DNA of 64,000 nt, taken from a virus. Under the pieces are notes generated by a model, which was given only the letters and a program-made list of their open reading frames with translations, was not told where the DNA came from and ran no database searches. Of this stretch, positions 21,936 to 64,000 are shown one piece after another (positions within the stretch are counted from its first letter, which is position 1; the number at the start of each line of letters is the position of its first letter). The stretch lies in IMG/VR virus record IMGVR_UViG_3300020203_000013, positions 38,269 through 102,268 of that record; one strand, given 5' to 3'. The position numbers and the translations under genes were made by a program.

Positions 21936-21938
21936 CTA

Positions 21939-46373: not shown

Positions 46374-46377
46374 ATGT

Positions 46378-47178: not shown

Positions 47179-47191
47179 GTATCGTAAAACC

Positions 47192-49188: not shown

Positions 49189-49197
49189 AGTGGTATA

Positions 49198-49608
49198 TTA
49201 TACACTATCTTTGATAAAAGTTAAATACCAGTTTGTTTTATACTCTGATATTGAGTATGTTTTGGCAGGAGTCCTAACGTCTACTGAATAACCGTTGGCA
49301 TTTTCTAATTTAGGAAATAAAACTTTATATTTACTACTACTACTCTTCTTCTTGCTATCTTCGATTATGTTCTGTATTAACACTAACTTATCTCCGATAA
49401 CATTACTTACAACTACTAACCTACTAGTAAAGGAAGGGGTTCCATTAGGATTCCACTCGTTAATTACCAACGGTTCTATGAAAAAATCCATATCCGCTAC
49501 CGTCATCTGAGATTTATAAACTTTTAAATAGCTATTTAAATCTACACAAGACTTTAGTTGAGAGGATAGGTATATCTTCCTTAGAACTCCTTTACTAGAT
49601 TCTTCCAT
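49198..49608 (-). CDS. Array-family small protein
   Basis: N-term VLRKIYL, C-term SEYKTNWYL. Confidence 0.6.
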   Translation of the reverse strand: MEESSKGVLRKIYLSSQLKSCVDLNSYLKVYKSQMTVADMDFFIEPLVINEWNPNGTPSFTSRLVVVSNVIGDKLVLIQNIIEDSKKKSSSSKYKVLFPKLENANGYSVDVRTPAKTYSISEYKTNWYLTFIKDSV

Positions 49609-49619
49609 TAATTGAAGTC

Positions 49620-50024
49620 TTAGGCTGGAGTTAAAGCTTCTTGTACGCTAGCTTCCTGACTATTATCTCTCGTGGACTCTGAGTTTTGGTCGCTTTTGTT
49701 TTTTGATAGAGCTTGAACTGTTGAAGCTTTAATTTCAAAAGCTTTAACCTTAGTACCATCTTTAAGATTGTACTCTCTAGCTTGAAGTTTTCCTTCTACC
49801 AGTACTTCTCTTCCTTTCTTAAGGTACTTAAGAGCAAATTCGGCATTACTACCAAAACATACTACATCAAACCACTCAGTTACTTTTTCTACTTTACCGT
49901 TGAAGTTGGTAGTTTCATGGGTAGCGATACTAAAGGCGGCGATTGAACTCTGCGCGTCTTCTTTAGAAATCTTTACTGGATCTTTTCCTAGATTACCAAC
50001 AATAATTACTTTATTAAAACTCAT
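49620..50024 (-). CDS. ssb: Single-stranded DNA-binding protein
   Basis: NKVIIVGNLGKDP, TEWFDVVCFG, YLKKG.EVLVEGKL; AAGGA SD; lacks the DDDIPF tail. Confidence 0.92.
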   Translation of the reverse strand: MSFNKVIIVGNLGKDPVKISKEDAQSSIAAFSIATHETTNFNGKVEKVTEWFDVVCFGSNAEFALKYLKKGREVLVEGKLQAREYNLKDGTKVKAFEIKASTVQALSKNKSDQNSESTRDNSQEASVQEALTPA

Positions 50025-50081
50025 ATTATTTTTCCTTACTAAATTACACAAAATATTGTTACAGATCAGATCCTACAGTAT

Positions 50082-50411
50082 TTACTTTTGTGAGTCAAGA
50101 ACAGGGGACTTAAATAAAGAATATAAGATTTGATTACCTTGTATAGGTAATACTACAACCTTATCATAATTAATGTCGTGAATTTTAAAATGTAGGTCTC
50201 TACCTATAGAGCACAAGAATCTAATTTTTTTAACACCGTGAGGGGACTGTAGCTCTCTCACTGTAAGTTTGTCATTAAATTTAAGGTGTTGGATTTCTAA
50301 ATTATCCAGCTCCAGATTCTTAATAGACTTATAGTTAATTTTTAACCTTATTACCAAATGGAGGAGGTAATCTAGAGAACGCAACGCTATTGATGGTCTT
50401 TCGTACAACAT
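50082..50411 (-). CDS. Hypothetical protein (possibly a distant array-family member)
   Basis: 109-aa ORF; TATAAT 7 nt upstream of ATG. Confidence 0.5.
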   Translation of the reverse strand: MLYERPSIALRSLDYLLHLVIRLKINYKSIKNLELDNLEIQHLKFNDKLTVRELQSPHGVKKIRFLCSIGRDLHFKIHDINYDKVVVLPIQGNQILYSLFKSPVLDSQK

Positions 50412-50534
50412 TTTATATATTATATATGATCTTTTAGATCTATCAACTAATGAGTTAACTAATTAATAGTTTAAAAAAGTTTAATAACCATCTAATATTA
50501 CTAAATCTCTTAAAGTGTTATAGTTTAGATTGGA

Positions 50535-50970
50535 TAGAGGGCGAGTTCTTCCCTTTTTACAGGGAAAAATAGAAAAAGTTTGAGTTATCAATCAGTTTTT
50601 GCAAAATACAACCTTGGATTTTCATCTAGGTTCTCGACGGGGTTATCCTGTCGCCGTTTTATGTAAGATATTCACGGGTACAACTTTATTCCCTACCTTG
50701 CAGTCAGAGGGAGTTGACAGGAGTGGTTACCTGTTCCTTCGGCCTATGGAGTACTAACCTAAAGCACTCTGTAAATTAATCTTGCACTGTCTAAAGCAAC
50801 AAGAAATTAATCATTTTTATACAGCCAACCTTTGGCTGTGATCTTTCTTCCCCTCACCCTTTCAAAACCTGGAAACAGGCAAACAGGACTAGCTCTATAT
50901 TAGCAGGAAGAGTTATGGTCATGTCCTGATATTTAGATCAGAACATCTTAGGTCTGCCAGCAAGTTATCA
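50535..50970. other. Highly structured non-coding element (candidate ncRNA or replication origin)
   Basis: About 10 near-contiguous inverted repeats, GC-richer than flanks, no ORF of 60 aa or more, adjacent to an AT-rich stretch at 50412-50520. Confidence 0.6.
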
Positions 50971-50987
50971 TTAAAGTATAACAGGAG

Positions 50988-51221
50988 TCAAGTGACTATC
51001 TCGTATGAGGACCAAGTTTTATTATATTCTGAGATCTTTAGTATTAAAAGTTCGTCCCCAGTTCCACTTAAAAGTTCTATAACATCAGTATTAAAGTTAA
51101 TAAAGTCAGAAGTAAAAGAGTCAGATAAATCAGAAAGGTCTAAATCAGGATCTCCTTTATTTATAATAATAAAAGGATGGCCCTTAATTATAAAGTCTGG
51201 AAGGGTTTTATTTTTCAACAT
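50988..51221 (-). CDS. Array-family small protein
   Basis: C-term ISEYNKTWSS. Confidence 0.6.
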   Translation of the reverse strand: MLKNKTLPDFIIKGHPFIIINKGDPDLDLSDLSDSFTSDFINFNTDVIELLSGTGDELLILKISEYNKTWSSYEIVT

Positions 51222-51489
51222 ACCATGTTAATCCATAAGTAGTTAAGACTTCGTGGTGGACTATATCGGACCTTACCCCAGTAAAGCCGTTCATTAGCTC
51301 TCCTGTCTTCTGGTGTCCAATGAATATTAAAGTTACAACTCCCCCTTTTAACTCGACAAAAGAGACTTTAAAAGGCCCCCCAAAGTCTTTCGTATAAACG
51401 TTTACAAAATCCCTAGGAGGTATATTTAAAAGCTCCTTCTTACTTTTTCCAAGACTCTGAGCTATTACTTTGAAAAAAATGGCGCTCAT
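51208..51489 (-). CDS. Array-family small protein
   Basis: N-term IFFKVI, C-term TTYGLTWYV. Confidence 0.6.
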   Translation of the reverse strand: MSAIFFKVIAQSLGKSKKELLNIPPRDFVNVYTKDFGGPFKVSFVELKGGVVTLIFIGHQKTGELMNGFTGVRSDIVHHEVLTTYGLTWYVEK

Positions 51490-51511
51490 ACTAAGGGACG
51501 AAACTAAGTTA

Positions 51512-52243
51512 TTAAATTTGTTTAACTAAATCCCCAAACAAATCCGGCGCATCTTCTAAGTTTGTATCTAAAGAAGCACAAGTTAAGAGGGTATTAGAGA
51601 CTAAAATGGTATTAGAACTGAATGAGCCACCAGAAGTTCCTCTCTCAGCCAAATCCCCGCTAGGTATTTTTATTGTCTGACTACCCCAAGAGTTCGTCTG
51701 AGTGGCAGTCCCGATTTTAGGCCCAAAAGGATTAGTTGGGTAAGAAGGTCCAGGGTATGTACCAGGGCCTATAACGCCAGGGTATATGTTAGGTATTCCA
51801 GGGCCTATAACACCAGGGTGTACACCGCCAGGGTATATGTTAGGTATTCCAGGACCAAAAGGACCCTTACTGATCTTTTTTATAATGTCTTGCATCTCTT
51901 CGTCGGTTAACCCAACGATAGCTTTATGTACTTTGGTTATGTTTTCACTAGTCCTGGTAACTGAGATATTGGCTTCGCATATAACCCAGCTAACTTTATA
52001 CTCCAAAGAACTTAAAGATTCTACGTTCTTTCCATCATGAATTTTAATAACCTTTCTAACTGGATTAAGTTCTTCTACTATAGACCGAACCTTAATATCT
52101 ACAATTTGGACATTTTTTTTATCGTCCTGTAAGGCCAAAAGATAGAACCTATTAACTGAGATGTCGTCAAAAGGAATAGCCTTGCTCTTTAAGAACCCCC
52201 AATGGATAGATTTTAACATGCCAGGAACGTCAGGAATTTTCAT
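51512..52243 (-). CDS. Array-family domain plus Gly/Pro repeat tail
   Basis: MLKSIHW..LEYKVSWVI, then GPGIPNIYPG repeats. Confidence 0.6.
   Translation of the reverse strand: MKIPDVPGMLKSIHWGFLKSKAIPFDDISVNRFYLLALQDDKKNVQIVDIKVRSIVEELNPVRKVIKIHDGKNVESLSSLEYKVSWVICEANISVTRTSENITKVHKAIVGLTDEEMQDIIKKISKGPFGPGIPNIYPGGVHPGVIGPGIPNIYPGVIGPGTYPGPSYPTNPFGPKIGTATQTNSWGSQTIKIPSGDLAERGTSGGSFSSNTILVSNTLLTCASLDTNLEDAPDLFGDLVKQI
51762..51853. repeat. Coding repeats (GPGIPNIYPG / PGVIGPG)
   Basis: CGCCAGGGTATATGTTAGGTATTCCAGG at 51775 and 51826; CCAGGGCCTATAAC at 51762 and 51798. Confidence 0.8.
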
Positions 52244-52250
52244 ATTTTTT

Positions 52251-52598
52251 CTAAATTAACACTTTTATAAGTCCGTACTTAATACCATAATCTACTATCG
52301 GAATGACAAAGTAAGGACAATCAGTTGAAGAATCTGATAATATTATTGCTTTATCAGTGATAGAGTGAATATATAGTTTTTTATTTAATCTCCTAAAAGA
52401 GACCACATCGTCCTGCTTCTTTAATAGATGGACCTTAAACTCTATAGTGCTATCTTCTTTATACTCTCGAAGAGAACTCAATGGCTCTAAGTGCCTCAGT
52501 GACAGTTTGATAGTGAGTTGGTGGAGCCTATCAGCTACAGAGATTCTTTTAGCTTTTGCCGCCTCTGAAAGGGCTGCACTTATATCTGTGTCCTTCAT
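52251..52598 (-). CDS. Array-family small protein
   Basis: C-term IVDYGIKYGLI. Confidence 0.6.
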   Translation of the reverse strand: MKDTDISAALSEAAKAKRISVADRLHQLTIKLSLRHLEPLSSLREYKEDSTIEFKVHLLKKQDDVVSFRRLNKKLYIHSITDKAIILSDSSTDCPYFVIPIVDYGIKYGLIKVLI

Positions 52599-52999
52599 AC
52601 TAAAACCCCTGCTAAGTAAAAATAGCCAATCTCATACCTATCTCTATCGAAGTAGTTCTCAATATTGAAAGTTTTTATAACTTCAGTTCCTCTTTTTAAA
52701 ACAAACAACTGGAATTTGCTATTATACCCTATTCCATCTATAAAGCATATATCGATTAAAGCATTGTTAGGTTTTTTACTAACCAATAAGTAACGTTTAA
52801 ACCTAGAGGTGTAGTAGTCATCAACCAGGTAATCATAAGAATCCCCATAAGTATCCCACAAAAAAGGCGACATCTGAGTACTGTTCGACGGCAAAAAAGG
52901 CAAATCAATTAAGGAGTTAGTGAAAAAAACTAAATCTTCTTTTAATATTTGGGTACTAAAGGACAGAATTATTTTTGTAAGCTGTCTTTTATCGTGCAT
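52595..52999 (-). CDS. Array-family-like small protein
   Basis: N-term QLTKII, C-term NIENY..YEIGYFYL. Confidence 0.55.
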   Translation of the reverse strand: MHDKRQLTKIILSFSTQILKEDLVFFTNSLIDLPFLPSNSTQMSPFLWDTYGDSYDYLVDDYYTSRFKRYLLVSKKPNNALIDICFIDGIGYNSKFQLFVLKRGTEVIKTFNIENYFDRDRYEIGYFYLAGVLV

Positions 53000-53384
53000 T
53001 TTTCTTTTTAATCCTCTTTATAGCTCTATCTAAGTGCTCGTCTACATTAGGTTTTGCTGACTGAGTTAGTAACCAATTTATCAACTTAGGGTTATTTTTT
53101 ATGATATAAAACAATCCTATGGAGATGTCGGTTACTAACCGCTCTTCTGTCCTATTGTTGATGTTTATATCATAGTTATAAAATATACTGTGAAGTAATT
53201 CGTGAAGAATAGTTTCTTCCATGTCTCCAGGTTTAAGATTTTTAGTATAAGAGATGATTTGCTTTTCGGATCTTTCAAACATACCTGCTGCTCTATTTTT
53301 AGATCCCCAATATGAGGACCTCTGTTCTATAAGAACAGGGTCGAAATCTGGATGAACCTTAACGGTCTTAGGAAGCTTTGCCAT
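52989..53384 (-). CDS. HExxH metallopeptidase-like phage protein
   Basis: ETILHELLHSIF..EERLV; unrelated to the flanking array family. Confidence 0.65.
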   Translation of the reverse strand: MAKLPKTVKVHPDFDPVLIEQRSSYWGSKNRAAGMFERSEKQIISYTKNLKPGDMEETILHELLHSIFYNYDININNRTEERLVTDISIGLFYIIKNNPKLINWLLTQSAKPNVDEHLDRAIKRIKKKNAR

Positions 53385-53775
53385 TTATCCTATGCCCTCT
53401 CCCAATACATAACAACCAAGTTGAATTATAAAAGAGTAAATCTTCTAAGGTATACTTCTCCTCAAGATTTTTAAGTGGGGACTTAAACAAGATTAACCCT
53501 TTGTCAATTCCAAGACTCATATTACTATAGCTTGAATACCTGCCTACCTTATAAATCGCGAAAGCTTTCCCGTTCACATCCAGTCTAATGTAAAACAAGT
53601 TTTCAGGTAATCTAGGTAAAGAGCCTATAAAGGGGATTCCCGTCTCGTAAACGCATCGAGTAACCTTGTATACTGGGCCGAACTTTTTCTCATAGAAATT
53701 CATTAGGTCTTCTACATCAGAACGTGGAAGAACTCTATACATTGATTTTATCAGACTAGAACTAAGCTTAACCAC
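53368..53775 (-). CDS. Array-family small protein
   Basis: N-term SLIKSMY, C-term LFYNSTWLL. Confidence 0.6.
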   Translation of the reverse strand: MVKLSSSLIKSMYRVLPRSDVEDLMNFYEKKFGPVYKVTRCVYETGIPFIGSLPRLPENLFYIRLDVNGKAFAIYKVGRYSSYSNMSLGIDKGLILFKSPLKNLEEKYTLEDLLFYNSTWLLCIGRGHRINGKAS

Positions 53776-54097
53776 CTTTAACCCACCAAGTTCTTTTATA
53801 ATCTTCTATTGAAAAAGACATTAGTTGTCCCAAGTTTTTTACATCAAGGTCTCTTACCGTAACTGTTTTTTCTTGAATCAATTCAACTACTTTAACCATT
53901 TTAAATTCTAGTTTACCTTCATTTTTAAAGAGTAAGTGAACTGGAACTTTAGCTTTTATCTTTTTGCCTGACCACCTAATTAAGTAGTCAGAGGTAACAG
54001 AGAGGACTTTAAAGTAAACATCAAAACTATCAGCCTTATTAGCCTTAATTCTTCTATCTGCTTCTATCTTTGCCCAATTATGTTTATACGGTTGCAT
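53768..54097 (-). CDS. Array-family small protein
   Basis: C-term IEDYKRTWWV. Confidence 0.6.
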   Translation of the reverse strand: MQPYKHNWAKIEADRRIKANKADSFDVYFKVLSVTSDYLIRWSGKKIKAKVPVHLLFKNEGKLEFKMVKVVELIQEKTVTVRDLDVKNLGQLMSFSIEDYKRTWWVKGG

Positions 54098-54128
54098 ACC
54101 TTATACTACAATAACTAATCCCAACTGT

Positions 54129-54545
54129 CTATTTAATAAATAAAAAAGACCCACCCACTCCTGTGCCAAGTTCCCCAGAAGACTTCAGAGTAACCTCAAA
54201 GTTAAAAGAAAAAGATGACTGAGGGCAAGGATGAATGAGGGTAAACCTAATTATAGAGTTGTCTTTTCCTAATAACCTAATTAAGTGGACTGGAGCATCT
54301 CCAGATAGTTTTAAAACCTTACCAGTTGGGTAATGATAGTACCTTAAATTACTCATTTTATCATTAGATAGGGTAATAGATCCACTAGAACCAATACTTT
54401 TGAGGTGCCTCCTAACCTCCTCAGCACTACTATCATCTGAAACTTTAAGACCTTTATAGTAAAAGGAAAAGGGTGCAAGGTCATCTAAGTGCCTGACCCG
54501 ATTATAATAACTAAACCTTTTGTTGAGTTTCTTTAAAAGATCCAT
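54129..54545 (-). CDS. Array-family-like small protein
   Basis: N-term LLKKLNKR. Confidence 0.55.
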   Translation of the reverse strand: MDLLKKLNKRFSYYNRVRHLDDLAPFSFYYKGLKVSDDSSAEEVRRHLKSIGSSGSITLSNDKMSNLRYYHYPTGKVLKLSGDAPVHLIRLLGKDNSIIRFTLIHPCPQSSFSFNFEVTLKSSGELGTGVGGSFLFIK

Positions 54546-54558
54546 ATAAATACTATCG

Positions 54559-54993
54559 TCAGGTTAATTCAGAATCTTTAATTTTATTTGCTGAAACTAA
54601 AGACCACGAAACACAAAGCTGCGTAGTCTCAAGCATTAAGGTTTTTTTGCGCGACCAAGGTGTTAACTTTAATAACGACTCTTCGTCTAACTGAATAGCA
54701 ATCCAATTGGGACCTATATAGGGATATGCCACCCCCTTCAATAGCTTAAATCCGTCGAAAAAACCATGAAAGTGTACATCATGTACACACATTGCGGTGT
54801 CATTCTCAGACATTTTTACTCTAGTGTGGTTAGCAATAAAAACCTCTACCTCCATAAATCTTAAGGCGTAAGTATCTGCTATCATATTACGCCCTACGGG
54901 CGGAGTTAGATCCGTTAACGGACTATGCCTCAGTAAGTTCTTATCTAAAAACCGCTTAGTTAATCTATTGGTAAAATTGAAAATACTACTCAA
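54559..54993 (-). CDS. Array-family small protein
   Basis: N-term FTNRLTKR, C-term TQLCVSWSLV. Confidence 0.55.
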   Translation of the reverse strand: MSSIFNFTNRLTKRFLDKNLLRHSPLTDLTPPVGRNMIADTYALRFMEVEVFIANHTRVKMSENDTAMCVHDVHFHGFFDGFKLLKGVAYPYIGPNWIAIQLDEESLLKLTPWSRKKTLMLETTQLCVSWSLVSANKIKDSELT

Positions 54994-55666
54994 TACCTAC
55001 TCCAAGAACAAAGCCTCTACCACTTTTAATACCCTTAAACTCCCTTCCCCCGTCTTGCTTTACTATTCCTTCTTCGGTGCGATTAAGGTCTTCAGGAAAG
55101 AAGGGGTTCTCAATAAAAATACCCTGATTCTCTCCAGATAGGTGAGCATCAGGGTCTGAAGAAGGACTAACGGTGAGCGCATCTGTAACGTCCTCGTAAG
55201 AGGACGGGTAGGAGAAGGTTCCAATACCTATTATAGCCCAAGTTATATTATAATCATCGCGACAGAGACAAAAACTTGAGTAATTCCGTCCACTAGCAAA
55301 AGGCCTATAAAACGTAATAAGCTGTGGAATAGAACTAGACCTATCACTCCCTTGTTCACAGGATTCTTGTCTAGCTAGAACAACTCCCTTAAAGGGATCT
55401 TCTCTTTGACTATAGCTTCGACAATCTGCGGCTGAATTCTCATGATCCATAATCCCCCAAGGACCTAAAACTATCATTTTATAAAATATACGACCGAATT
55501 GATAGTCTGGGTAATTTCTTTGAGTATACCCTAAAGCAAGTTTTAGAGGCGGGGCAAGTGTAACTAACCGACTAGCACCCTCTAGAAACTTTCTCTGTTG
55601 ATCATCTTTTAATTTTTTTTCTATATTGATAGTAAATTTATTTAAAAGTTCTCTGTTAGATTTCAT
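54986..55666 (-). CDS. Array-family protein with C-terminal extension
   Basis: N-term ELLNKF, internal RDDYNITWAII. Confidence 0.6.
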   Translation of the reverse strand: MKSNRELLNKFTINIEKKLKDDQQRKFLEGASRLVTLAPPLKLALGYTQRNYPDYQFGRIFYKMIVLGPWGIMDHENSAADCRSYSQREDPFKGVVLARQESCEQGSDRSSSIPQLITFYRPFASGRNYSSFCLCRDDYNITWAIIGIGTFSYPSSYEDVTDALTVSPSSDPDAHLSGENQGIFIENPFFPEDLNRTEEGIVKQDGGREFKGIKSGRGFVLGVGIE

Positions 55667-56097
55667 TTAATCTCCCAAGCAGTCTTATAATTTTTAAGAT
55701 CTAATTTTATATAATAACCCCACCAAGTTTTGCCTACTTTATTCCCGAATAGGGTATACTTTCCCAAAAGAGTGTCTTCAGTTATTGAGTCTAAGTAAAA
55801 AGTATTCCATCGTGGGGAGTAGTTAAGATGGCCATAGACGGTAGAGCCTGAAAACATTCTACCAATTGCAGGGCTCTTTATCTCGACATTATCATAGGTA
55901 AATATAAGGATTGCCGTGTTCAATGTAATATACCGCCAGCGACCGTATTCTTCTAGTTTATACTCTAAGTTTGCAATAACATCGTCTCTAGGCATTTCAC
56001 TTTCGTAACTTAATAAACTTTCAAAAGATCTTTTAATCTCGTAATTCCTAGCTTTCTTAGCCAAAATAGTTAATATATTTTTAGATGTTTGAAGCAT
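55663..56097 (-). CDS. Array-family small protein
   Basis: Two tandem motif copies: NKVGKTWWG and KNYKTAWEI. Confidence 0.6.
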   Translation of the reverse strand: MLQTSKNILTILAKKARNYEIKRSFESLLSYESEMPRDDVIANLEYKLEEYGRWRYITLNTAILIFTYDNVEIKSPAIGRMFSGSTVYGHLNYSPRWNTFYLDSITEDTLLGKYTLFGNKVGKTWWGYYIKLDLKNYKTAWEIK

Positions 56098-56100
56098 AGA

Positions 56101-56490
56101 CTAAAGTGTAAATCCTTTTTCAGATAAATAGTCAACTATTACACTATTATTTCTAATAATTGCAGAGACATGTAAGGACTGTGTTGATATTCTAGTTACA
56201 ACCCAGCCCTCACCCCAGCTCTCACCATAATCGCTATGTTGTAACCATATCATTGGCTCCACCATACGTTCCGTAAAGCTAAACATGTAGCTACCCCCAC
56301 TACTAAAGGATAGTCTACCCATCTCAAACTTTCTAGACTCTCCAAGTTTCAATAAAATTCTGGCCTCAACTGATTCTTCTACGGAGTGATCCATAACCCA
56401 CTTAACGTAACCAAAAGGAATATACTTTCCAGAATTTAAAATGTCGTCTACTGTTTTATTGTACAGTATCTGTAGGGTACTCTTTACCAT
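56101..56490 (-). CDS. Array-family small protein
   Basis: N-term TLQILYNK, HSDYGESW. Confidence 0.6.
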   Translation of the reverse strand: MVKSTLQILYNKTVDDILNSGKYIPFGYVKWVMDHSVEESVEARILLKLGESRKFEMGRLSFSSGGSYMFSFTERMVEPMIWLQHSDYGESWGEGWVVTRISTQSLHVSAIIRNNSVIVDYLSEKGFTL

Positions 56491-56492
56491 AT

Positions 56493-57026
56493 TTAATATA
56501 CTCTTATTAGCTCCTCGTTTGTTTTTTTAATAAAAGAAACTAATCTACCTGTATCGTCTAAATCTACATGAGATGAAACCTCATTTGAAGTTATATACCA
56601 CTTAATTATATACTGCTTTTCATCGAAAAACATGTGCAAAGGAACCTTTTCTCCATTTATATATTGCACTAGATTGAAACTACTTTCAGGGTTTGATATA
56701 AGACATGGAAGTGTGTCGGAGTGCAAACTAAGATCAGACAAAAAATCTCCCCCAAACTTAGCATCTCCTCTATAAGCGGTAAGTAAAGCAGGAAACTTAA
56801 ACATCCCAATAATATGATCATCATCTACCCAGTCATGCTGTGTTCGGCTTTTAATGGGACAATGTAAAATAGCTATAATATCTACTACGGGATAAAATCT
56901 TCTCCCAGAAGATAATTTAAAGAACTCTTCAAGCATGACATATGCAGATTCAAAAGGGACAGAGGGATACTTATCAAAGACCCCCTTTACTACTTTTCTA
57001 TGTATCTTTAAAAGTTTATAATTCAT
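56493..57026 (-). CDS. Array-family small protein
   Basis: N-term KLLKIHRK, KQYIIKWYI. Confidence 0.6.
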   Translation of the reverse strand: MNYKLLKIHRKVVKGVFDKYPSVPFESAYVMLEEFFKLSSGRRFYPVVDIIAILHCPIKSRTQHDWVDDDHIIGMFKFPALLTAYRGDAKFGGDFLSDLSLHSDTLPCLISNPESSFNLVQYINGEKVPLHMFFDEKQYIIKWYITSNEVSSHVDLDDTGRLVSFIKKTNEELIRVY

Positions 57027-57568
57027 TTCTGTATCTCTAATATGACCACATCTTGTGGGTCTATGAAATCACCATAGTCTTCCTCTTTAGTTGACTGTTT
57101 AATTTCATTTATAAACCATAGCGTGTTATAGGTATTTTCATTATAAATTTTATCTAAATTTATTGCGTTTAGACAGTTAAGATCCTTAGTATCATGAAAG
57201 CATTGGATGGGATTTATCTGCATCTTCAGGTCCGTATGATGCTGATTAATATTCGACCAATAAGACATCCATACAGATATATTATCTATTGAAACTACTC
57301 TAGACTTCGTATTTAACTGATACGGGCAGAGAAAGCTTTCGTCTATTTTTCCAACTAAGTATCGCCTAAAGAGTTCTGTATCCCATATAAAGGTAACCTT
57401 AGCTCTGTAGAAATCCCCAAATCCCATACCAGAACCTCCGCCCTCTTCTTCATCTCGGTCTCTTAAAAAGTTAAATATTGCGGTAGGGGACTTGCGGTCC
57501 CCTATTAAGGTTTTTAATTGTCTATTTTTTAACTTAAGCCAGAACTCACCTATGGAATTAATCGACAT
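57023..57568 (-). CDS. Array-family small protein
   Basis: ENTYNTLWFI. Confidence 0.6.
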   Translation of the reverse strand: MSINSIGEFWLKLKNRQLKTLIGDRKSPTAIFNFLRDRDEEEGGGSGMGFGDFYRAKVTFIWDTELFRRYLVGKIDESFLCPYQLNTKSRVVSIDNISVWMSYWSNINQHHTDLKMQINPIQCFHDTKDLNCLNAINLDKIYNENTYNTLWFINEIKQSTKEEDYGDFIDPQDVVILEIQK

Positions 57569-57938
57569 ATTCCAAGCCCTTTAAGTAAGTATGGTCTATG
57601 CCGTGTAAGTAAGTTTCCTGCGTTAAATATAATCCGAAGTTATCCTTAAAATTAAGGGTCGGATGAATACAAATACTTATATAAAAGACCGTCTCCGGTC
57701 CCGATCTGTTAAAGTATCTAAAAAATCCAATTATATCTTCTCCACTAAAGTTAATAGTAACTTGGATTTTTTCTAAGTGCTGTCCAAGGTTAGGCATACT
57801 CTTACTATCCGTAAAATCTACTAAATCGTTTAAGGCTTTTTGATAGTCGTAAGAAAGCTCTAGGTTTATAAGTTCAACCTTATTAATAATCATCCTACGC
57901 AAATTATCGTTATATATCTTACTTAATAAATTCTTCAT
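57558..57938 (-). CDS. Array-family small protein
   Basis: N-term NLLSKIYND. Confidence 0.6.
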   Translation of the reverse strand: MKNLLSKIYNDNLRRMIINKVELINLELSYDYQKALNDLVDFTDSKSMPNLGQHLEKIQVTINFSGEDIIGFFRYFNRSGPETVFYISICIHPTLNFKDNFGLYLTQETYLHGIDHTYLKGLEYVD

Positions 57939-57958
57939 ACAATAAGTCTGTCGGCATA

Positions 57959-58318
57959 TTAGGGTAAATTCTTTAGTAAATTTTCATCGTACTTGAGAAT
58001 GCTCCATTGGTCCCCGTAAGTACTTATGCGGGCCCTATACCTCCTAGGCCGTACCTTTCCTGGCCGTACCTCCTTAGGATGAAAATTTAAATATGCAGCA
58101 CCTACCGATTCATCACTTACCGACGATAGCTCTCCTTCAAGAAAGTGGCACCTACAGGGCTCGGTTCTCCAGGGTACACGTTTAATCTTTAGTAGGACAT
58201 TTATTCTAGCAGAAGGAACAGATTTTAAGTAGCTTATTATACCCTCAAGCCCTTCAACAGGTAAAGGTTTAAAGGCACCATCCATCATCTTTTCAAGCAG
58301 TCTAGCTGATATTGACAC
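57959..58318 (-). CDS. Array-family small protein
   Basis: Start reassigned to GTG 58318 (GGAGG 6 nt upstream) giving MSISARLLEKM; C-term ISTYGDQWSIL. Confidence 0.6.
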   Translation of the reverse strand: MSISARLLEKMMDGAFKPLPVEGLEGIISYLKSVPSARINVLLKIKRVPWRTEPCRCHFLEGELSSVSDESVGAAYLNFHPKEVRPGKVRPRRYRARISTYGDQWSILKYDENLLKNLP

Positions 58319-58400
58319 TAGTAACCTCCAGAACTTCCCAACTTTTACCATACCCTTCAAGCAAGACTATATCTGATAGTTTTTTCAATAGGTAACTCAT
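58302..58400 (-). CDS. 32-aa mini-member of array family (internal deletion product)
   Basis: Hand-translated MSYLLKKLSDIVLLEGYGKSWEVLEVTSVNIS*; ATGA overlap with upstream gene. Confidence 0.5.
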   Translation of the reverse strand: MSYLLKKLSDIVLLEGYGKSWEVLEVTSVNIS

Positions 58401-58717
58401 TTTAGCGCCGCCCAAACTTTACCATAATCTTTAGTATTAAAAACAAAAGTACTTATATGTACTCCTTTCTCATTAATATACTTCTCTACTGGGACTGCAT
58501 AAATACTGGTCCCGTCCGTTAAGAAGATAGATATGTTAGATAGAAATATCCTAGACTCTTCAAGGTTAACCATTTTAAGTTGAGGGCTTACATCGCTAGT
58601 ACTGGCGTTAAGCCATATATCTACTACCCTACAAAATGAGTAGACATCATGAGCTTTCTCGGTGTTTACCAGATGGAGGAGGCTTTTCCTATAGAATTTG
58701 TTTAATAGATAATTCAT
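58397..58717 (-). CDS. Array-family small protein (recent duplicate, copy A)
   Basis: MNYLLNKFY...KDYGKVWAALK. Confidence 0.7.
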   Translation of the reverse strand: MNYLLNKFYRKSLLHLVNTEKAHDVYSFCRVVDIWLNASTSDVSPQLKMVNLEESRIFLSNISIFLTDGTSIYAVPVEKYINEKGVHISTFVFNTKDYGKVWAALK

Positions 58718-59067
58718 TTTTTAAGTACCCACCATGACGTTGTGTACGAAGACTCTTCAAAAAAAAGAGGCTGGCCTTCCTCGTAGTAAAGCACGTGAAA
58801 CCTAAAGTAGACACGATCTCTGTACAACCTGTTGGCAGTACATTGGCTAATAAGGGTACCAGTCGTTTTTACCAAAATCCCATCTTCCATTCTTTGTATT
58901 ATAGTTACATTCCGTAAATAGCCATAATCATTAAACGAACTATAATAAAATGCTTTTTTTACTCTATGTAAATCCTCTATCATTTTTCGGTCAGTGATCT
59001 CTCTTTCTAATCCTTTCTGATTTAAAGCAGTTAATCCTTTAGTTAATCCTTCAGTTATGTAACTCAT
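58714..59067 (-). CDS. Array-family small protein
   Basis: Start ATG 59067 (ATGA overlap); C-term ESSYTTSWWVL. Confidence 0.6.
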   Translation of the reverse strand: MSYITEGLTKGLTALNQKGLEREITDRKMIEDLHRVKKAFYYSSFNDYGYLRNVTIIQRMEDGILVKTTGTLISQCTANRLYRDRVYFRFHVLYYEEGQPLFFEESSYTTSWWVLKK

Positions 59068-59393
59068 TTTAGCGCCGCCCAAACTTTACCATAATCTTTA
59101 GTATTTAAAACAAAACAACTTATATGTACTCCTTGCGTATCAATATACTTCTCTACTGTGCCTGCATAAAAACGGGTCCCGTCCGTTAAATCAATAGATA
59201 TGTTAGATAGAAATACCCGACCCTCGGCAAGATGAACAATTTTAAGTTGGATATAGGTAAATTTGTAGTCCCCACCGTCACCTTTATACCATATATCTAC
59301 TACCCTACAAAATGAGTAGACATCATGAGCTTTCTCGGTGTTTACCAGATGGAGGAGGCTTTTCCTATAGAATTTGTTTAATAAATAATTCAT
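59064..59393 (-). CDS. Array-family small protein (recent duplicate, copy B)
   Basis: MNYLLNKFY...KDYGKVWAALK. Confidence 0.7.
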   Translation of the reverse strand: MNYLLNKFYRKSLLHLVNTEKAHDVYSFCRVVDIWYKGDGGDYKFTYIQLKIVHLAEGRVFLSNISIDLTDGTRFYAGTVEKYIDTQGVHISCFVLNTKDYGKVWAALK

Positions 59394-59394
59394 T

Positions 59395-59787
59395 TTAGTG
59401 TATTTTTATAATATCCCATCCTATTCCTAGATCAGATATTCTTAATTTAACTCTATGTAAGTTAGGACTAGTTGGGCAGTATACGTCTGTTATCCATAAA
59501 TGGTCCCCAAACACTGCCACGTCCCCAAAAAACTCATCCGTGTTACGAGAATGCAAGGTAAAATCCCTATATACGTAAAATAAATTACTATTACTACTAT
59601 CTCTATACTCTACTATGCTCATTTTAATCAGTCTGTCAGTTAAAAATCTTCTGTAAAGTCCATACGGCATAATAGCCTTATCCTTAGACCTAAGACCTAT
59701 TAGATTTTTTATTTCGCTTGAAGTATACCCTTTAAATAGATCAACCAGTCTCCAGGTAAATACTTTCTCTAGTAGTCTATTCTTCAT
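59395..59787 (-). CDS. Array-family small protein
   Basis: RLLEKVF; ISDLGIGWDII. Confidence 0.6.
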   Translation of the reverse strand: MKNRLLEKVFTWRLVDLFKGYTSSEIKNLIGLRSKDKAIMPYGLYRRFLTDRLIKMSIVEYRDSSNSNLFYVYRDFTLHSRNTDEFFGDVAVFGDHLWITDVYCPTSPNLHRVKLRISDLGIGWDIIKIH

Positions 59788-60148
59788 CTTCTAAAATTAC
59801 CCACCACTGCTCTTTATAAGTTCTTTCGGAATACTCTTTACTCTCTTGCTTTCCCCCACCAGATTCCTTGCCTACAAAAGAGTAATACCTGTACGTAAAT
59901 CCTATTAATAAGTCTTCATAGTTATCTTTTAAAGACCCCTTTAATATTCTATACGGCCTCTCTTTACTTCTAGTTTTATTGACTAAAGTAACTTTAATTG
60001 GCAACTTACTTTCTAATCTTCTATCAATATCATTTAAACTAGCTACTCTAGACCTCTCCCCTGATATTAAATCCAGAATAGACTCCTGATAGGAATCCTG
60101 CACCCTCTTTAAGTGATTAGTATATAGCCGGTTCAGTAATAAGTTCAT
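59777..60148 (-). CDS. Array-family small protein
   Basis: LLLNRLY; RTYKEQWWVI. Confidence 0.6.
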   Translation of the reverse strand: MNLLLNRLYTNHLKRVQDSYQESILDLISGERSRVASLNDIDRRLESKLPIKVTLVNKTRSKERPYRILKGSLKDNYEDLLIGFTYRYYSFVGKESGGGKQESKEYSERTYKEQWWVILEDEE

Positions 60149-60462
60149 TTAATCTCCGTAAAGTCAGTTATCCACCAGTCTACCCCGTATGTATGCTCAT
60201 CAAACCTTAAACCACACTTACTACCTAACATTAGAGAATCTTCTAACACATACTCGTTCCCTATTGGATCAAATATAAGTTTACCCTTACGTAATATTCC
60301 AACTCGGAAATAACTCTTATCCAGAATAGTAGCTTGACAATTTATACCTTGACTTAAATATGACTTTCTAATCATAATTATAGGCACAACTATAGGTAAG
60401 ACATTAATCTTAGTTTCTCCTAAACACTTGAGGTACAATTTTAATAGTAGTGATGAGTTCAT
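60145..60462 (-). CDS. Array-family small protein
   Basis: SLLLKLY; HTYGVDWWIT. Confidence 0.6.
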   Translation of the reverse strand: MNSSLLLKLYLKCLGETKINVLPIVVPIIMIRKSYLSQGINCQATILDKSYFRVGILRKGKLIFDPIGNEYVLEDSLMLGSKCGLRFDEHTYGVDWWITDFTEIK

Positions 60463-60836
60463 TTATCTAGGTGAACCTTAAAAATAAAAACCGTTTTACC
60501 TATCTGATCTAACTCAAATCCTACATAATTTAAGTCCGTACTAGTATTATAAAAATAAGCCCCACCTGGGCCAGAGTTTATGGCAAATTCCACAGCGTCA
60601 ACAACAGCTAAACGAGCTACTTCTATAGGGAGTTCCCATAGACCAAAGATTGAATCTCCGCCAGTCTGAAATCGAATTGGAATATGAACAAAGGAGAGAG
60701 TAATCTTTCCATCCACCATCAAAGACCTTATCGAGTCTTCATCAAACCCCAAAGCGTAAGTACTCATAACCCTTTTTATTTCGGAGTATGTTAAAGATTT
60801 TATATATTGCAAAAAAACTTTATTTAAGAGGGTCAT
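60459..60836 (-). CDS. Array-family small protein
   Basis: Start ATG 60836 (MTLLNKVF, ATGA overlap); DQIGKTVFIF. Confidence 0.6.
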   Translation of the reverse strand: MTLLNKVFLQYIKSLTYSEIKRVMSTYALGFDEDSIRSLMVDGKITLSFVHIPIRFQTGGDSIFGLWELPIEVARLAVVDAVEFAINSGPGGAYFYNTSTDLNYVGFELDQIGKTVFIFKVHLDK

Positions 60837-61318
60837 ATATTTCCCGCCGTTCCCGTTGTTGGCGCTGTTGTTAAAGGGTCCCATCCTGAGAGAAGCCACG
60901 CTCCAGACTCAACTAAACTCAAAATTTCTGCCAGAGTTAAAATTAGATAGTATCGAAAGCCATCTCCATTCAGGCTATAAAAAGTTATATTGTATTCTAT
61001 TTCCTCTAAAGGTTTAGTTAACTCCGCAAAAACTCCTCCTACCTTAATTTTTACAGTGTTAATATATACGTACCCCTCAGTATACGCAACGGCAAAAGGG
61101 ATTTGACTAACTGGAGGGGGTACCCAATCTCCTGTTTTAAGCATAAAAGTTATAGCATTGGAATTTAGTATCTTCTTCCTAACAAAATAGCTTTTTAATC
61201 CAAACTTCCTCTGAGCCTGTAAGCTTATCTGCTGTAGCCGTGTTGGGCGAAGGGGTATTAGTTTATAAGTCATACGGATACTATCGGCAGGGGCCTTCCA
61301 AACCTTGAGCCTTTTCAA
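60833..61318 (-). CDS. Hypothetical protein
   Basis: TTG start with AGGAGG SD upstream; family motifs weak or absent. Confidence 0.5.
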   Translation of the reverse strand: MKRLKVWKAPADSIRMTYKLIPLRPTRLQQISLQAQRKFGLKSYFVRKKILNSNAITFMLKTGDWVPPPVSQIPFAVAYTEGYVYINTVKIKVGGVFAELTKPLEEIEYNITFYSLNGDGFRYYLILTLAEILSLVESGAWLLSGWDPLTTAPTTGTAGNI

Positions 61319-61476
61319 CCGAGTGCCCTCCTAAAAACCCCGCACTCAACCGATTTTTTTTGGGGCTCCCTCTAATAGTTTAACTATGGGTTAGTAGTCA
61401 ATTATATCTTGTAATATCAAGTAGTTAGAGTACTTATACCCATTCATAATTTTATAATTAAGCATATAATCAATAG

Positions 61477-61848
61477 TTAATTAAACTTATGTTCCGATAA
61501 TCTAGATAAAACCCATTCAGCACCATAACTTTCTCTTCTGTATATACCCATCGTACCTAAAACCCCGCCTACTAAACATATTGATTGCCACTGACCTACT
61601 TTAAAAAATCCAGAGGGCATATTACCTATTATAAATTTACCTATTATATTTTCAGGGGGGAGTGTTTGCCTGGAACGTGCTACAATTACGTCCAGCTTTA
61701 TGCCATATTCACCGTAATACTGATAGTCTAAATACCTATCTAATTCTTGTAGAGTATATGCATAAACTTCTTTCCCACAGAACTTTGTAGGAAGATAATC
61801 CTTTAATACATGCTTATCATATAACTTATCTAATAGCTTATTTCTCAT
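61477..61848 (-). CDS. Array-family small protein
   Basis: KLLDKLY; ESYGAEWVL. Confidence 0.6.
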   Translation of the reverse strand: MRNKLLDKLYDKHVLKDYLPTKFCGKEVYAYTLQELDRYLDYQYYGEYGIKLDVIVARSRQTLPPENIIGKFIIGNMPSGFFKVGQWQSICLVGGVLGTMGIYRRESYGAEWVLSRLSEHKFN

Positions 61849-62258
61849 TTAAAATATAACGGCTCAGGCTTCTTAATAGTATCAATACTAAATTTCAATA
61901 TAAAAACAGTTCTACTTAAATTAAGGACACTAAAAGATTGCAAATCAGAATTATATATATCAGTTACAAAATAACGTCCACTATCTAGATGACCTAGATA
62001 AGTACCTCTACGTTCATATTCCACCTGGAAGGGTTGGTTTATCATTATATATTTAATTTTACCTTTTGGTTCAGTTAATACTACTACTGTTAATTTTATT
62101 TCTTTATAGGGGGATAAGTCTTTATCAAAGTAAAGCTTGTTCAGTGCTTCCCCATCTACACAAACTTGATTCCTATTCAAGAAAGAATGTAACTCTTTAG
62201 TCCCCAAATTTTTAAGGAAGTTAATATATACTTTTTCCATTGACATGGATTTATACAT
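61845..62258 (-). CDS. Array-family small protein
   Basis: MEKVYINFL; LNLSRTVFIL; exact start uncertain. Confidence 0.55.
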   Translation of the reverse strand: MYKSMSMEKVYINFLKNLGTKELHSFLNRNQVCVDGEALNKLYFDKDLSPYKEIKLTVVVLTEPKGKIKYIMINQPFQVEYERRGTYLGHLDSGRYFVTDIYNSDLQSFSVLNLSRTVFILKFSIDTIKKPEPLYFK

Positions 62259-62640
62259 GGTGTATCTCAACTATAAACCAGGTATTACCTAAGTCGTCTA
62301 GCCTTAATCTGGTAGGTTTTTTAGTAAGACGATCAATCCTTTCTAGGTAATCAGGGTGATTAGGGCAATTATCACCATTACCACAAGCAGGACTTACTAA
62401 ATCCCAGGGTTCTTTATATACGAAGACCTGGGGATGAATACCCGACTCATGTACGTAAGCGGGAGAGGAGAGGGTTAAGTTAATTGGTCCAATATATTTA
62501 GTATACCCTTCTTTAGTTTTATAGAATGAGTTAATTATAGTTTCCCTTGTTATACCTTTAGCAAGGAATTCATCTTTTGCATCCTTATTAATACCTTCTA
62601 CAATCCTTATACACATTTTTTTTAAAATGGGGTTATGCAT
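62251..62640 (-). CDS. Array-family small protein
   Basis: PILKKM; DDLGNTWFIV. Confidence 0.6.
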   Translation of the reverse strand: MHNPILKKMCIRIVEGINKDAKDEFLAKGITRETIINSFYKTKEGYTKYIGPINLTLSSPAYVHESGIHPQVFVYKEPWDLVSPACGNGDNCPNHPDYLERIDRLTKKPTRLRLDDLGNTWFIVEIHHV

Positions 62641-62989
62641 CGTATACCTTAAGTATAAACCAAGTAAGATCCTGTTCCGATAGGGGAAACCTTTTACAAT
62701 CAGAAAACTCTCCCTGAGGAAGTCTTACTCGCAGATGACCTTCCTGTATAGTAAACTGTTGATTTATCAATAAGATAGGTCCCACAGCATCTGTAGGATA
62801 TTTTTTACCCTTAATAATAGTTAGGTTCCTAAACCCAGTTAGACCACCTAAGTAATCAAAAGTAAATAACTTTGTTAGTTCTAGTAAAGGTAGAATAATC
62901 CTATTCTTATTAATAAAAGCTAGAAAATCTGTATGATCCATCCCCTCTATACAAGATTTATATATATTATTTAATATATGGGTGTTCAT
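62633..62989 (-). CDS. Array-family small protein
   Basis: HILNNIY; SEQDLTWFIL. Confidence 0.6.
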   Translation of the reverse strand: MNTHILNNIYKSCIEGMDHTDFLAFINKNRIILPLLELTKLFTFDYLGGLTGFRNLTIIKGKKYPTDAVGPILLINQQFTIQEGHLRVRLPQGEFSDCKRFPLSEQDLTWFILKVYDA

Positions 62990-63136
62990 GTCTTTAACCT
63001 ATAATTCATTAAGTAGTCTATCGACACTAAGTCTAAATAACTTTATATATATATATTTATTTCACTATGGGGTAGAACATATATTAAGTGCCCAAAATTA
63101 TTTCTGATTCTATTGGTATTAAATATAAGGGGTTTA

Positions 63137-63514
63137 TCACCAGTGCTTAGAAAAGTTTAATATCCAATAAGTCTTGTTAACATCTTCAATTAGAAATTGT
63201 GTCGCGATCCCCTTATTATGTTCGAAGCGGGAGATCACTGTAAAACTACCCTTCTCAAAACTGTTATTGCCATACAAGTGTGCAAAACCATAACCTAGTT
63301 TATAACACACTATTCCCTCTAAAGAGGTAGATATTGCTGCATAGGTAACAACTTGATAAGAATCAAAACGTAATTCAGTCTTGAATATACTAAATAATTG
63401 CTCAGAGTCTAAGGGTTTACTAGAATTCTTACAAAGACTTTTAATACCATCGGAGTCTAGTCCATGTAAAAACTTCCAATAAAGCCTCTTTAATAGTTCT
63501 TTATTCATGGACAT
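63137..63514 (-). CDS. Array-family small protein
   Basis: MSMNKELLKRLY; EDVNKTYWIL. Confidence 0.6.
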   Translation of the reverse strand: MSMNKELLKRLYWKFLHGLDSDGIKSLCKNSSKPLDSEQLFSIFKTELRFDSYQVVTYAAISTSLEGIVCYKLGYGFAHLYGNNSFEKGSFTVISRFEHNKGIATQFLIEDVNKTYWILNFSKHW

Positions 63515-63920
63515 TTAGTATCCACCAGTGAATGTTCAAATCACCAACTAGCAGTTCGTTCATTTGAACGTGAGGTATGTAGTCCTTCTCCCAATAACGA
63601 AGTTGTTGCGCCTTCTTCCCCCAATAACGAAGTTGTTGCCCCTTACCCGTGATGTGTATCTCTTGGTCTAGATAAAGATGGTAGTTAAGGTCATCCCAGT
63701 TCCAACATACAAATGTAGCCTTGAAAGACGTGAAGTGCGGGTTATGTATTGCTTTTTTTCGTACTGTCTCTAAAAATGCCTTCATTTTCTCAGGCCTTGA
63801 AGACTTCTTATAGCAATCAATATGATTCTCCAACTTTAGATATATGCTATCTCCCTTTTTATAAAGATCCGTCAGCGTTCTAAAGTATATTTTATCTAAT
63901 AGTTCTTTATTCATGGACAT
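63501..63920 (-). CDS. Array-family small protein
   Basis: MSMNKELLDKIY; GDLNIHWWIL; internal QQLRYW duplication. Confidence 0.6.
   Translation of the reverse strand: MSMNKELLDKIYFRTLTDLYKKGDSIYLKLENHIDCYKKSSRPEKMKAFLETVRKKAIHNPHFTSFKATFVCWNWDDLNYHLYLDQEIHITGKGQQLRYWGKKAQQLRYWEKDYIPHVQMNELLVGDLNIHWWILNVHE
63590..63639. repeat. 30-nt-period tandem duplication (QQLRYW x2)
   Basis: CCCAATAACGAAGTTGTTGC at 63590 and 63620. Confidence 0.85.
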
Positions 63921-64000
63921 TTAGTATCCACCAGTCAATGTTCAAACCAGAAACTGACAGGTCGTTCATTGGAGCGTGAGGCATGTCCTTATCCCAATAA
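63907..64000 (-). CDS. 3' end of another array-family gene (close paralog of 63501-63920)
   Basis: Hand-translated ...YWDKDMPHAPMNDLSVSGLNIDWWILNVHE*. Confidence 0.7.
   Translation of the reverse strand, partial: YWDKDMPHAPMNDLSVSGLNIDWWILNVHE

Follow-up and report, generated by a model that had tools for sequence, protein, structure and literature searches.

A tandem array of hyper-divergent small genes with conserved ends in an uncultured large phage

Layout of the array and its shared end motifs

We analysed a 64,000-nucleotide (nt) stretch of viral DNA (the window), which comprises bases 38269–102268 of a linear 102,268-bp IMG/VR contig (IMGVR_UViG_3300020203_000013), such that the window end is also the contig end. 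The minus strand from 50988 to 64000 is occupied by a tandem array of 33 consecutive open reading frames (ORFs) of 32–243 codons, the last of which is cut by the window end. Most of the complete ORFs encode 93–181 amino acids (aa), and an outlying member (49198–49608) sits just beyond the ssb gene (49620–50051). These genes form a family with a common anatomy that is restricted to one phage clade, evolves fast and varies in copy number between strains. Of the 32 junctions between 50988 and 64000, taken with the best start codons, 21 overlap by 4–17 nt and a further five have gaps of 0–10 nt, with only two gaps exceeding 100 nt. The ORF listing and junction measurements thus agree with the strand, ORF sizes and overlapping coupling reported in the initial annotation of this DNA.

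The array belongs to an uncultured large (jumbo) phage from microbial mats, and near-identical DNA is held in at least eight microbial-mat metagenome runs. The completeness of the contig is 36% (CheckV), suggesting a phage of ~250–300 kb, with a GC content of ~36%. The contig also has terminase and capsid-like genes, ssb and a sugar-modification cluster; the array forms a unit of its own, which adjoins ssb and accessory genes and lies ~30 kb from the terminase and capsid genes. The nearest cultured phages share a terminase identity of only 27%, and a blastn search of the array and the terminase-portal region against 50,697 phage records returned zero DNA matches.

A profile search returned one paralog missing from the window, P0008, which led to a metagenome contig, L002; this is a strain variant whose sequence is 91% identical to the window end where the two overlap. 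(Labels of the type L002 and L003 denote metagenome or relative contigs, and G001–G003 denote terminase relatives in IMG/VR.) On L002 the array does run on past the window, as the initial annotation had anticipated, by about three genes only. Counting this head, the full array spans ~13.5 kb and ~36 genes, of which ~33 are in the window.

Two motifs recur at the ends of the encoded proteins. The C-terminal motif (C-motif) has the general form [DES]-[YL]-[GKN]-x-x-W-hydrophobic, while the N-terminal motif (N-motif), carried by about a third to half of the members, has the form M-x(1-3)-L-L-x-K-h-Y (h, hydrophobic). A third common element in the alignment is a first β-strand of the type [IF]-K-[VLA]-T-[IV]-[IV]. 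The features are listed below in the direction of transcription, where ‘leave-one-out’ refers to the hidden Markov model (HMM) searches described after the list.

63907–64000, minus: family member, 3' end, cut by the window and contig end; ends in GLNIDWWILNVHE before the stop; 100% identical to L002:10664-10767, the counterpart of this partial gene being L002:10362-10757.
63501–63914, minus: member, 137 aa; LLDKIY and DLNIHWWIL; leave-one-out rank 1, E=1e-7; a recent paralog of L002:10001-10375 and L002:10362-10757.
63137–63508, minus: member, 123 aa; LLKRLY and DVNKTYWIL; leave-one-out rank 1, E=1e-6; protein identical in L002.
63061–63077, minus: conserved intergenic element TTCTACCCCATAGTGAA, within a 147-nt gap.
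62633–62989, minus: member, 118 aa; ILNNIY and EQDLTWFIL.
62251–62640, minus: member, 129 aa; ILKKMC and DLGNTWFIV; leave-one-out E=1.2e-3.
61845–62246, minus: member, 133 aa (gene call P0001); MSMEKVYINFL and NLSRTVFIL, with V in place of W.
61477–61848, minus: member, 123 aa; LLDKLY and SYGAEWVLS.
61380–61396, minus: degenerate copy of the intergenic element with three mismatches, within a 158-nt gap.
60833–61318, minus: 161-aa ORF with neither motif, a non-member or unrecognisable; an ATGA overlap couples it to the next member.
60459–60836, minus: member, 125 aa from ATG (gene call P0005); LLNKVF and QIGKTVFIF.
60145–60462, minus: member, 105 aa; LLLKLY and TYGVDWWIT.
59777–60148, minus: member, 123 aa; LLNRLY and TYKEQWWVI; leave-one-out rank 1, E=1e-6.
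59395–59787, minus: member, 130 aa; LLEKVF and DLGIGWDII.
59064–59393, minus: member, 109 aa; recent duplicate of 58397–58717 (75% aa identity).
58714–59067, minus: member with the C-motif only, 117 aa; SYTTSWWVL; E=1.4e-5; lies between the two duplicates.
58397–58717, minus: member, 106 aa; LLNKFY and DYGKVWAAL.
58302–58400, minus: 32-codon ORF with the N-motif joined straight to the C-motif; MSYLLKKL, then EGYGKSWEVLEV; ATGA overlap with the upstream stop.
57959–58318, minus: member, ~119 aa from GTG 58318 (the listed ORF reaches TTG 58360); LLEKMM and TYGDQWSIL.
57558–57938, minus: member with the N-motif only, 126 aa; LLSKIY; C-end degenerate.
57023–57568, minus: 181 aa; an acidic ~30-aa tail follows the C-motif TYNTLWFIN.
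56493–57026, minus: probable member, 177 aa; starts MNYKLLKIH; KQYIIKWYIT, then a tail.
56101–56490, minus: probable member, 129 aa; starts TLQILY; SDYGESWGEGWVV.
55663–56097, minus: 144 aa; C-motif NYKTAWEIK and an internal KVGKTWWGY.
54986–55666, minus: 226 aa; LLNKFT start, DDYNITWAII at residue 138 and a ~85-aa extension; repeated top non-training HMM match.
54559–54993, minus: probable member, 144 aa; variant C-end QLCVSWSLV.
54129–54545, minus: probable member, 138 aa; MDLLKKLNKRF start and C-end GVGGSFLFIK, with F for W.
53768–54097, minus: member with the C-motif only, 109 aa; EDYKRTWWV; top non-training match in most leave-one-out runs (E 1e-4 to 4e-3).
53368–53775, minus: member, 135 aa; LIKSMY and FYNSTWLLC; contains a strain-variable patch (53518–53706).
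52989–53384, minus: non-member, a 131-aa HExxH protein embedded in and coupled to the array; weak SprT/M78/DUF3920 resemblance (E 0.04–0.07 only).
52595–52999, minus: possible member, 134 aa; variant C-end RYEIGYFYLAGV.
52251–52598, minus: probable member, 115 aa; variant C-motif VDYGIKYGLIKV.
51512–52243, minus: 243 aa; N-terminal family-like module (first ~90 residues) with LEYKVSWVI at residue 81, then a Gly/Pro-rich extension (GPGIPNIYPG) coded by a tandem 51-nt repeat at 51761–51862.
51208–51489, minus: member, 93 aa; TYGLTWYVEK.
50988–51221, minus: last array gene, 77 aa; SEYNKTWSS.
50412–50987, no strand: non-coding spacer of 576 nt that closes the array; no tRNA or Rfam match.
49198–49608, minus: outlying member, 136 aa, downstream of ssb; VLRKIY and EYKTNWYLT; syntenic with L012:14050-14430 in G001.

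In its strict form, [YLI][GKNT]xxW within the last 25 residues, the C-motif is found in 15 of 30 array ORFs and in none of the 107 ORFs in the rest of the 102-kb contig (Fisher p=4e-12). Among the same ORFs, 11 of the 30 and one of the 107 carry the N-motif, scored as [LIV]Lx[KRN][LIFVM][YF] in residues 1–30 (p=1e-7), while in shuffled array proteins the two motifs occur at 2.1% (C-motif) and 0.3% (N-motif). Allowing Y, V or F for the tryptophan, or a tail after the motif, brings the C-motif to ~30 of the 33 array ORFs. The proposal that almost every ORF belongs to the set therefore largely stands, with 52989–53384, 60833–61318 and 50082–50411 as non-members.

The codons for the conserved leucine, tyrosine and glycine residues vary synonymously (CTA/TTA/CTC/CTG, TAT/TAC and GGT/GGA/GGG), and DNA repeats in the array are confined to two recent duplicate pairs (58397/59064 and 63501/63907), which places the constraint at the level of the protein. 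The DNA repeat scan excluded a repeated DNA junction as the source of the motifs outside those two pairs, and a compositional effect was likewise ruled out, as conservation acts on the protein. From the array and contig counts, the shuffles and the codon variation, the motif pair marks a real, amplified and diversified small-protein set, as first proposed. In leave-one-out HMM searches the held-out member ranked 1–6 in 10 of 14 runs, with E values from 1e-7 to above 1; the top non-training places were mostly taken by held-out members and other array ORFs, and ORFs from outside the array intruded in about one-third of the runs. By pairwise BLAST a single pair stood out (75% identity); the remaining matches were weak, and many ran from end to end.

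We considered whether the motifs could be by-products of translation signals, with the WW codons (TGGTGG) near the stop serving as a Shine-Dalgarno-like site and an A/T-rich M-N-K-x-L-L-K start aiding initiation. Overlap is the rule at array junctions, and 6 of 29 array genes have GGTGG in the 30 nt before their start, versus 1 of 108 others, as this explanation would have it. The tyrosine, G/K/N and hydrophobic positions of the motif, however, play no part in ribosome binding, and the motif is kept where the next gene is 147–576 nt away or where a 30–85-aa tail follows. This phage also makes weak use of the signal, with a core Shine-Dalgarno sequence in just 27% of its genes versus 14% of random windows, and the N-motif occurs in only one of the 107 other genes of the same genome. 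Codon variation, the Shine-Dalgarno frequencies and the N-motif count elsewhere largely rule this idea out, and we consider it extremely improbable.

Relatives and fold of the family

Relatives of the family were found only within its own phage clade. A profile of 13 members searched against 1.84 billion representative proteins returned only proteins of this phage and strain variants, while a profile of short members from three phages, searched against 5.8 billion proteins, returned six of the query proteins and one further 78-aa protein from a 4.5-kb contig. Among 30 array and relative proteins, Pfam gave nothing below E=0.003, all matches being under the curated cut-offs, and none of 35 members matched a PHROGs family at E<=0.01. 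The best E value in a PDB profile search was 0.97, and the ESM Atlas returned chance-level matches only (scores ~0.8), with the Atlas's own model at a predicted local distance difference test (pLDDT) score of 0.43. No related locus was found in IMG/VR with single members, ssb or P0008 as the query, and literature searches for a described phage counterpart yielded nothing relevant. The statement in the initial annotation that no described phage system matches the motif pair is borne out across Pfam, PHROGs, the PDB and both protein collections. Two loci from a metagenome scan (L004 and L005) were rejected as chance matches to one pattern on a high-GC soil contig.

Relatives of the terminase, on the other hand, identified four contigs in IMG/VR. 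The closest, G001 (terminase 60% identity), has the same ssb-plus-array layout and nine small genes ending in [YF]-x-x-x-W-W-h. G002, a 260-kb contig (terminase 47% identity), carries ~nine W-motif genes in small clusters, one of which lies beside a homologous sugar cluster; its C-motif carriers are proteins of 74–163 aa without the N-motif. An HMM of the 23 C-terminal residues, built from window members only, matches small ORFs of G001 and G002 at their extreme C-ends (E 5e-5 to 0.014 among 541 ORFs). As the window-built model finds these genes at their C-ends, the end motif is, by sequence comparison, old within the phage clade, and only the window's lineage has the large expansion of N-motif-bearing genes.

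These relatives carry further small gene types. The G001 array (L012:17101-19548) contains a second family of small paralogs, whose seven genes are interspersed among the W-motif genes and all end in [DP]-R-x-x-[IV]-L-x-Y-L-L; this family is absent from the window's contig, G002 and G003. In G002, a 162-aa protein with a WGTKWNA motif (21452–21940, L014) adjoins one W-motif cluster, with small ‘YSYSTPVA’ proteins nearby (19968–20189 and 22177–22413, L014). We take the WGTKWNA motif to resemble DUF1281/Api92-like families, and presumably both gene types occur in plasmid leading regions.

The initial annotation envisaged one small fold that had been amplified. An amplified, motif-bearing set is present; profile-profile comparison, in contrast, matched C-terminal columns only, leaving a single fold for all members no more than plausible. 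With hhalign, the window set and the G001 set align over 17 C-terminal columns (P=6e-4, probability 28%), and the upstream and downstream halves of the array over 25 (P=3e-4, probability 38%). Full-length similarity was seen only within subgroups, by BLAST, leave-one-out HMM and paralog pairs.

AlphaFold modelling of 63137–63508 with a 23-row paralog alignment gave a pLDDT of 57, with three helices and six strands predicted and the ends most confident. A 97-aa head member modelled with a 35-row alignment reached a pLDDT of 77.7 and a predicted template modelling (pTM) score of 0.64. This model comprises two helices (residues 3–16 and 22–31) followed by strands at 36–45, 48–58, 66–70, 79–82 and 91–95, and the known structures closest to it are Tudor, PWWP, chromo, Sm/Hfq and bL19 barrels. 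Foldseek searches against the PDB and BFVD returned nothing at E below 0.07. The suggestion of an SH3-like β-barrel therefore agrees with the one usable model, while the fold matches fall below the tool's noise guide and no Foldseek match is significant. Compared with SH3-like small β-barrels (Tudor, PWWP, chromo, Sm/Hfq, bL19 and the CarD N-domain), the array proteins have no sequence signal to them, the model adds two N-terminal helices, and the aromatic pair lies in the last strand rather than at the cage positions of PWWP and Tudor domains.

In the head-member model the C-motif is a barrel strand within the best-scored stretch (pLDDT block means 86 and 82). The conserved ends, which had been proposed to act as a free docking signal, look in this model like buried framework, namely the first helix and the last strand. 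The alignment has a corresponding layout of N-helix, central strand and C-hairpin, and 79% of members are more helix-prone N-terminally than C-terminally, versus 51–53% of controls. The members have no predicted transmembrane segment and are mostly basic (median pI 8.8); judged by their sequences they are soluble proteins. Our working model of the architecture is of helices followed by a small barrel that is closed by the W-strand.

An alternative is that the members do not share one fold, and that a ~20-residue C-terminal module (strand, turn, W-strand), often together with the N-helix, has spread onto heterogeneous cores. The module would then be a common docking, assembly or co-folding element, acting for example by strand addition to a shared partner or to a neighbouring gene product. 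This would explain why hhalign aligns the last 17–25 columns only, and it suits the members with only the C-motif (53768, 58714 and 50988) or only the N-motif (57558), the lengths of 77–243 aa, and the G002 motif carriers of 74–163 aa that lack the N-motif. The 32-codon ORF at 58302–58400, in which the motifs are directly joined, can be read in the same way; it looks like a core-less remnant or mini-member, resembling a member minus its core. Yet in the recent duplicates the whole gene was copied before the cores diverged, and most members are alike in length and in having helices followed by strands. The motif, moreover, is hydrophobic and forms a barrel strand rather than an exposed tail in the model, and outside the recent pairs there are no DNA repeats at the junctions by which a module could be moved. 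We judge the spread of a module onto unrelated cores to be rather unlikely.

Divergence between copies and between strains

Four recent paralog pairs have ratios of non-synonymous to synonymous change (dN/dS) of 0.89–1.51. For the pair 58397–58717 and 59064–59393 the overall dN/dS is 0.89; the core has proportions of synonymous (pS) and non-synonymous (pN) differences of 0.25 each and one indel, while the first 36 codons differ by one synonymous and two non-synonymous changes and the last 13 do not differ at all. The ends are poor in synonymous change too, which suggests tracts of recombination or conversion besides selection. A three-way group at the array head has dN/dS values of 0.99–1.51.

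Variation within the natural population is also concentrated in the array. Over 44001–58421, 16 positions distinguish the window from the contigs of four other mat samples, and 13 of these single-nucleotide polymorphisms (SNPs), common to the four samples, fall in 190 nt of one member (53518–53706 within 53368–53775), with the surrounding 14 kb almost invariant. Scored individually, eight of the SNPs in this patch change an amino acid and five are silent; the patch looks, from its sequence, like a recombination or gene-conversion tract. The other eight array SNPs scored comprise seven protein-changing and one silent, for a total of ~15 non-synonymous to 6 synonymous, while a 6.9-kb flank contains one SNP, which is synonymous.

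Copy number differs too, with the window strain having one more head paralog than L002. A ~90-nt junction repeat (63491–63580 and 63897–63986) marks the site of unequal exchange, and assemblies break at array duplicates. The locus thus combines the features of a multigene family or ‘gene accordion’: tandem paralogs, strain copy-number change, accelerated divergence and an SNP excess over the flank. A diversity-generating retroelement target was ruled out by the absence of RVT_1 from the 102-kb contig (~36% of the genome) and of a template repeat, and the strain SNPs are not adenine-specific, unlike retroelement-driven change.

The same data could describe largely neutral material, in which selfish or accidental duplications drift in a gene nursery and the motifs are kept by recency or gene conversion. 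A dN/dS of ~1, mostly non-synonymous strain SNPs, variable copy number, the core-less 32-codon remnant (58302–58400) and the lack of homologs outside the clade would all be expected of such an array. Neutral drift is harder to reconcile with ~33 frames that are all open and tightly coupled, with motif residues that are kept through differing codons, and with a phage genome that is otherwise compact. Moreover, the motif is retained in phages whose terminases have diverged to 60% and 47% identity, a distance that recent duplication or gene conversion could not bridge. We regard a neutral origin as improbable.

Possible role and control signals

We tentatively favour the reading that the array is an early-operon, rapidly diversifying repertoire of host-directed binders within a phage-lineage-specific multigene family, although we would stop just short of calling it probable. 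The genes would form one long co-directional, mostly translationally coupled operon. A typical member would be a soluble, usually basic protein of 95–140 aa, with an amphipathic N-helix (M-x-x-LL-x-K-h-Y) and a second helix, then the first β-strand ([IF]-K-[VLA]-T-[IV]-[IV]) and a small β-sheet or barrel closed by the hairpin [DES]-Y-[GKN]-x-x-W-W-h-h. The conserved ends would provide the framework of the fold and the segment between them a fast-changing surface. Growth and shrinkage of the array would proceed by unequal recombination at conserved gene junctions, with patchy exchange and relaxed-to-diversifying selection driving the copies apart. From its position and by analogy, we infer that the array is transcribed early, from its own promoter and alongside neighbouring accessory genes, and that its products act as a binder set in the host cytoplasm. 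Their variable surfaces would track variable host targets, whether defence or takeover proteins or nucleic acids.

A more specific version, which we consider distinctly unlikely, is a binder repertoire on one small-barrel scaffold that resembles cassette-based variation. Here, dozens of co-expressed paralogs would be reshuffled by junction-mediated duplication and loss together with patchy gene conversion, and would neutralise changing host defence or surface-modification factors.

Several observations weigh against a binder repertoire. Homology of the cores is unsupported by hhalign, which covers just 17–25 C-terminal columns at 28–38% probability, and the weak pairwise BLAST matches cluster at the protein ends. 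There is just one usable structure model, and its fold matches lie below the noise guide of the tool. A dN/dS near 1 is also expected of neutral decay, and the near-identical ends of recent pairs may reflect recombination tracts rather than selection. Lastly, the promoters and terminators were called from consensus matches, which are no more frequent than expected by chance.

The members could instead be capsid-targeted internal or ejected proteins, with the N-helix as a targeting sequence like the T4 capsid targeting sequence and the variable bodies as injected effectors. The N-motif does occupy a fixed position in the first 12 residues, and the phage is large (CheckV 36% completeness for the 102-kb contig). 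About half of the members lack the N-motif, however, and the near-universal feature is the C-motif. Just 11 of 31 members have a T4-type [LI]xE site within the first 25 residues, and its position varies among them, although this is the T4 consensus and may not be the specificity of this phage's protease. The array also sits beside ssb and accessory genes, with the terminase and capsid genes ~30 kb away, and ~35 different internal proteins would lack precedent. We therefore give this explanation little probability.

The T-even internal proteins are diverse and share only a targeting sequence, with their diversity ascribed to an arms race with host defence (PMC3012670). Like IPI, IPII and IPIII and the polymorphic ip loci, the array encodes small, highly diverse phage proteins that keep a short conserved terminal signal. 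In the array, by contrast, the element that nearly all members share is hydrophobic, sits at the C-terminus and apparently belongs to the fold. The N-motif is not followed by a conserved protease site, and a single tandem operon, distant from the head genes, contains ~35 genes.

Arms races between large eukaryotic DNA viruses and their hosts characteristically involve tandem multigene families that gain copies, lose them and diversify, with the MGF110/360/505 families of African swine fever virus and poxvirus K3L amplification as examples of such families or ‘gene accordions’. The array resembles these in having tandem paralogs near an accessory-rich region, strain copy-number differences, conserved termini with divergent bodies, and rapid evolution. 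The viruses belong to another realm and infect other hosts, with no kinship in sequence or fold, such that the likeness would be a functional analogy only.

Large lytic phages carry host-takeover clusters, including SPO1 gp37-60, the Twort-like terminal-repeat ‘Tre’ genes and the early small ORFs of T4 and T5, and small early phage genes are usually described as unrelated ORFans. These clusters share with the array long, co-directional, tightly packed runs of small ORFans outside the structural and replication cores. They consist mostly of unrelated genes or small paralog groups, whereas nearly all genes of the array carry the motif pair, and we know of no tandem family of 30 or more members among them. 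The locus is of a known kind, a viral tandem multigene family or phage early ORFan cluster. As far as the databases and literature searches reach, the novelty lies in this family itself, its size for a phage, the two-ended conservation and the visible population dynamics.

What sets the locus apart is that a shared motif pair connects ~35 neighbouring genes, that duplication, core divergence and copy-number change can be seen between strains of a natural population, and that the family has no relatives outside its phage clade among billions of database proteins. If the members bind host factors, they would provide a natural variant series on one small scaffold for studying the diversification of counter-defence or takeover, and part of the ORFan content of jumbo phages would be hidden paralogy. 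A small-barrel binder repertoire, if true, would give viruses of prokaryotes their first counterpart to the multigene families by which large eukaryotic viruses evade immunity. Even with a mundane function, the array would be a clean case of very fast protein divergence that leaves framework residues only.

Promoter and terminator scans inside the array were at or below shuffle expectation, and a tRNA and Rfam scan of the window gave no match. In the 576-nt spacer that closes the array, a near-consensus sigma-70-like promoter match (TTGATA-16-TATAAT, 50446–50419) faces the ssb unit. At the other end, the gene order on L002 indicates that the array has a defined head: in the direction of transcription there is a terminator-like hairpin (9266–9289), ~400 nt of non-coding DNA, a promoter-like site (9664–9691), the first member (9715–10008), P0008 (10001–10375), a further gene (10362–10757) and then the gene identical to 63137–63508. 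Exact copies of the 17-nt element TTCTACCCCATAGTGAA are present at 63061–63077 and upstream of the head at L002:9578-9594. The element, which is preceded by AATTTTGGG, is confined to the head region and two internal array gaps (the copy at 61380–61396 being degenerate) and occurs nowhere else in the contig. Based on this distribution, it may be an array- or phage-specific promoter or operator.

Upstream of the head on L002 are unrelated small accessory genes, including a gene for a RadC-like JAB protein and two DUF7447 paralogs (L002:1116-1547, 2410-2706 and 6534-6878). Another contig carries two extra genes here (L003:1840-2641, ~0.8 kb) that are missing in L002, so the accessory region is also strain-variable.

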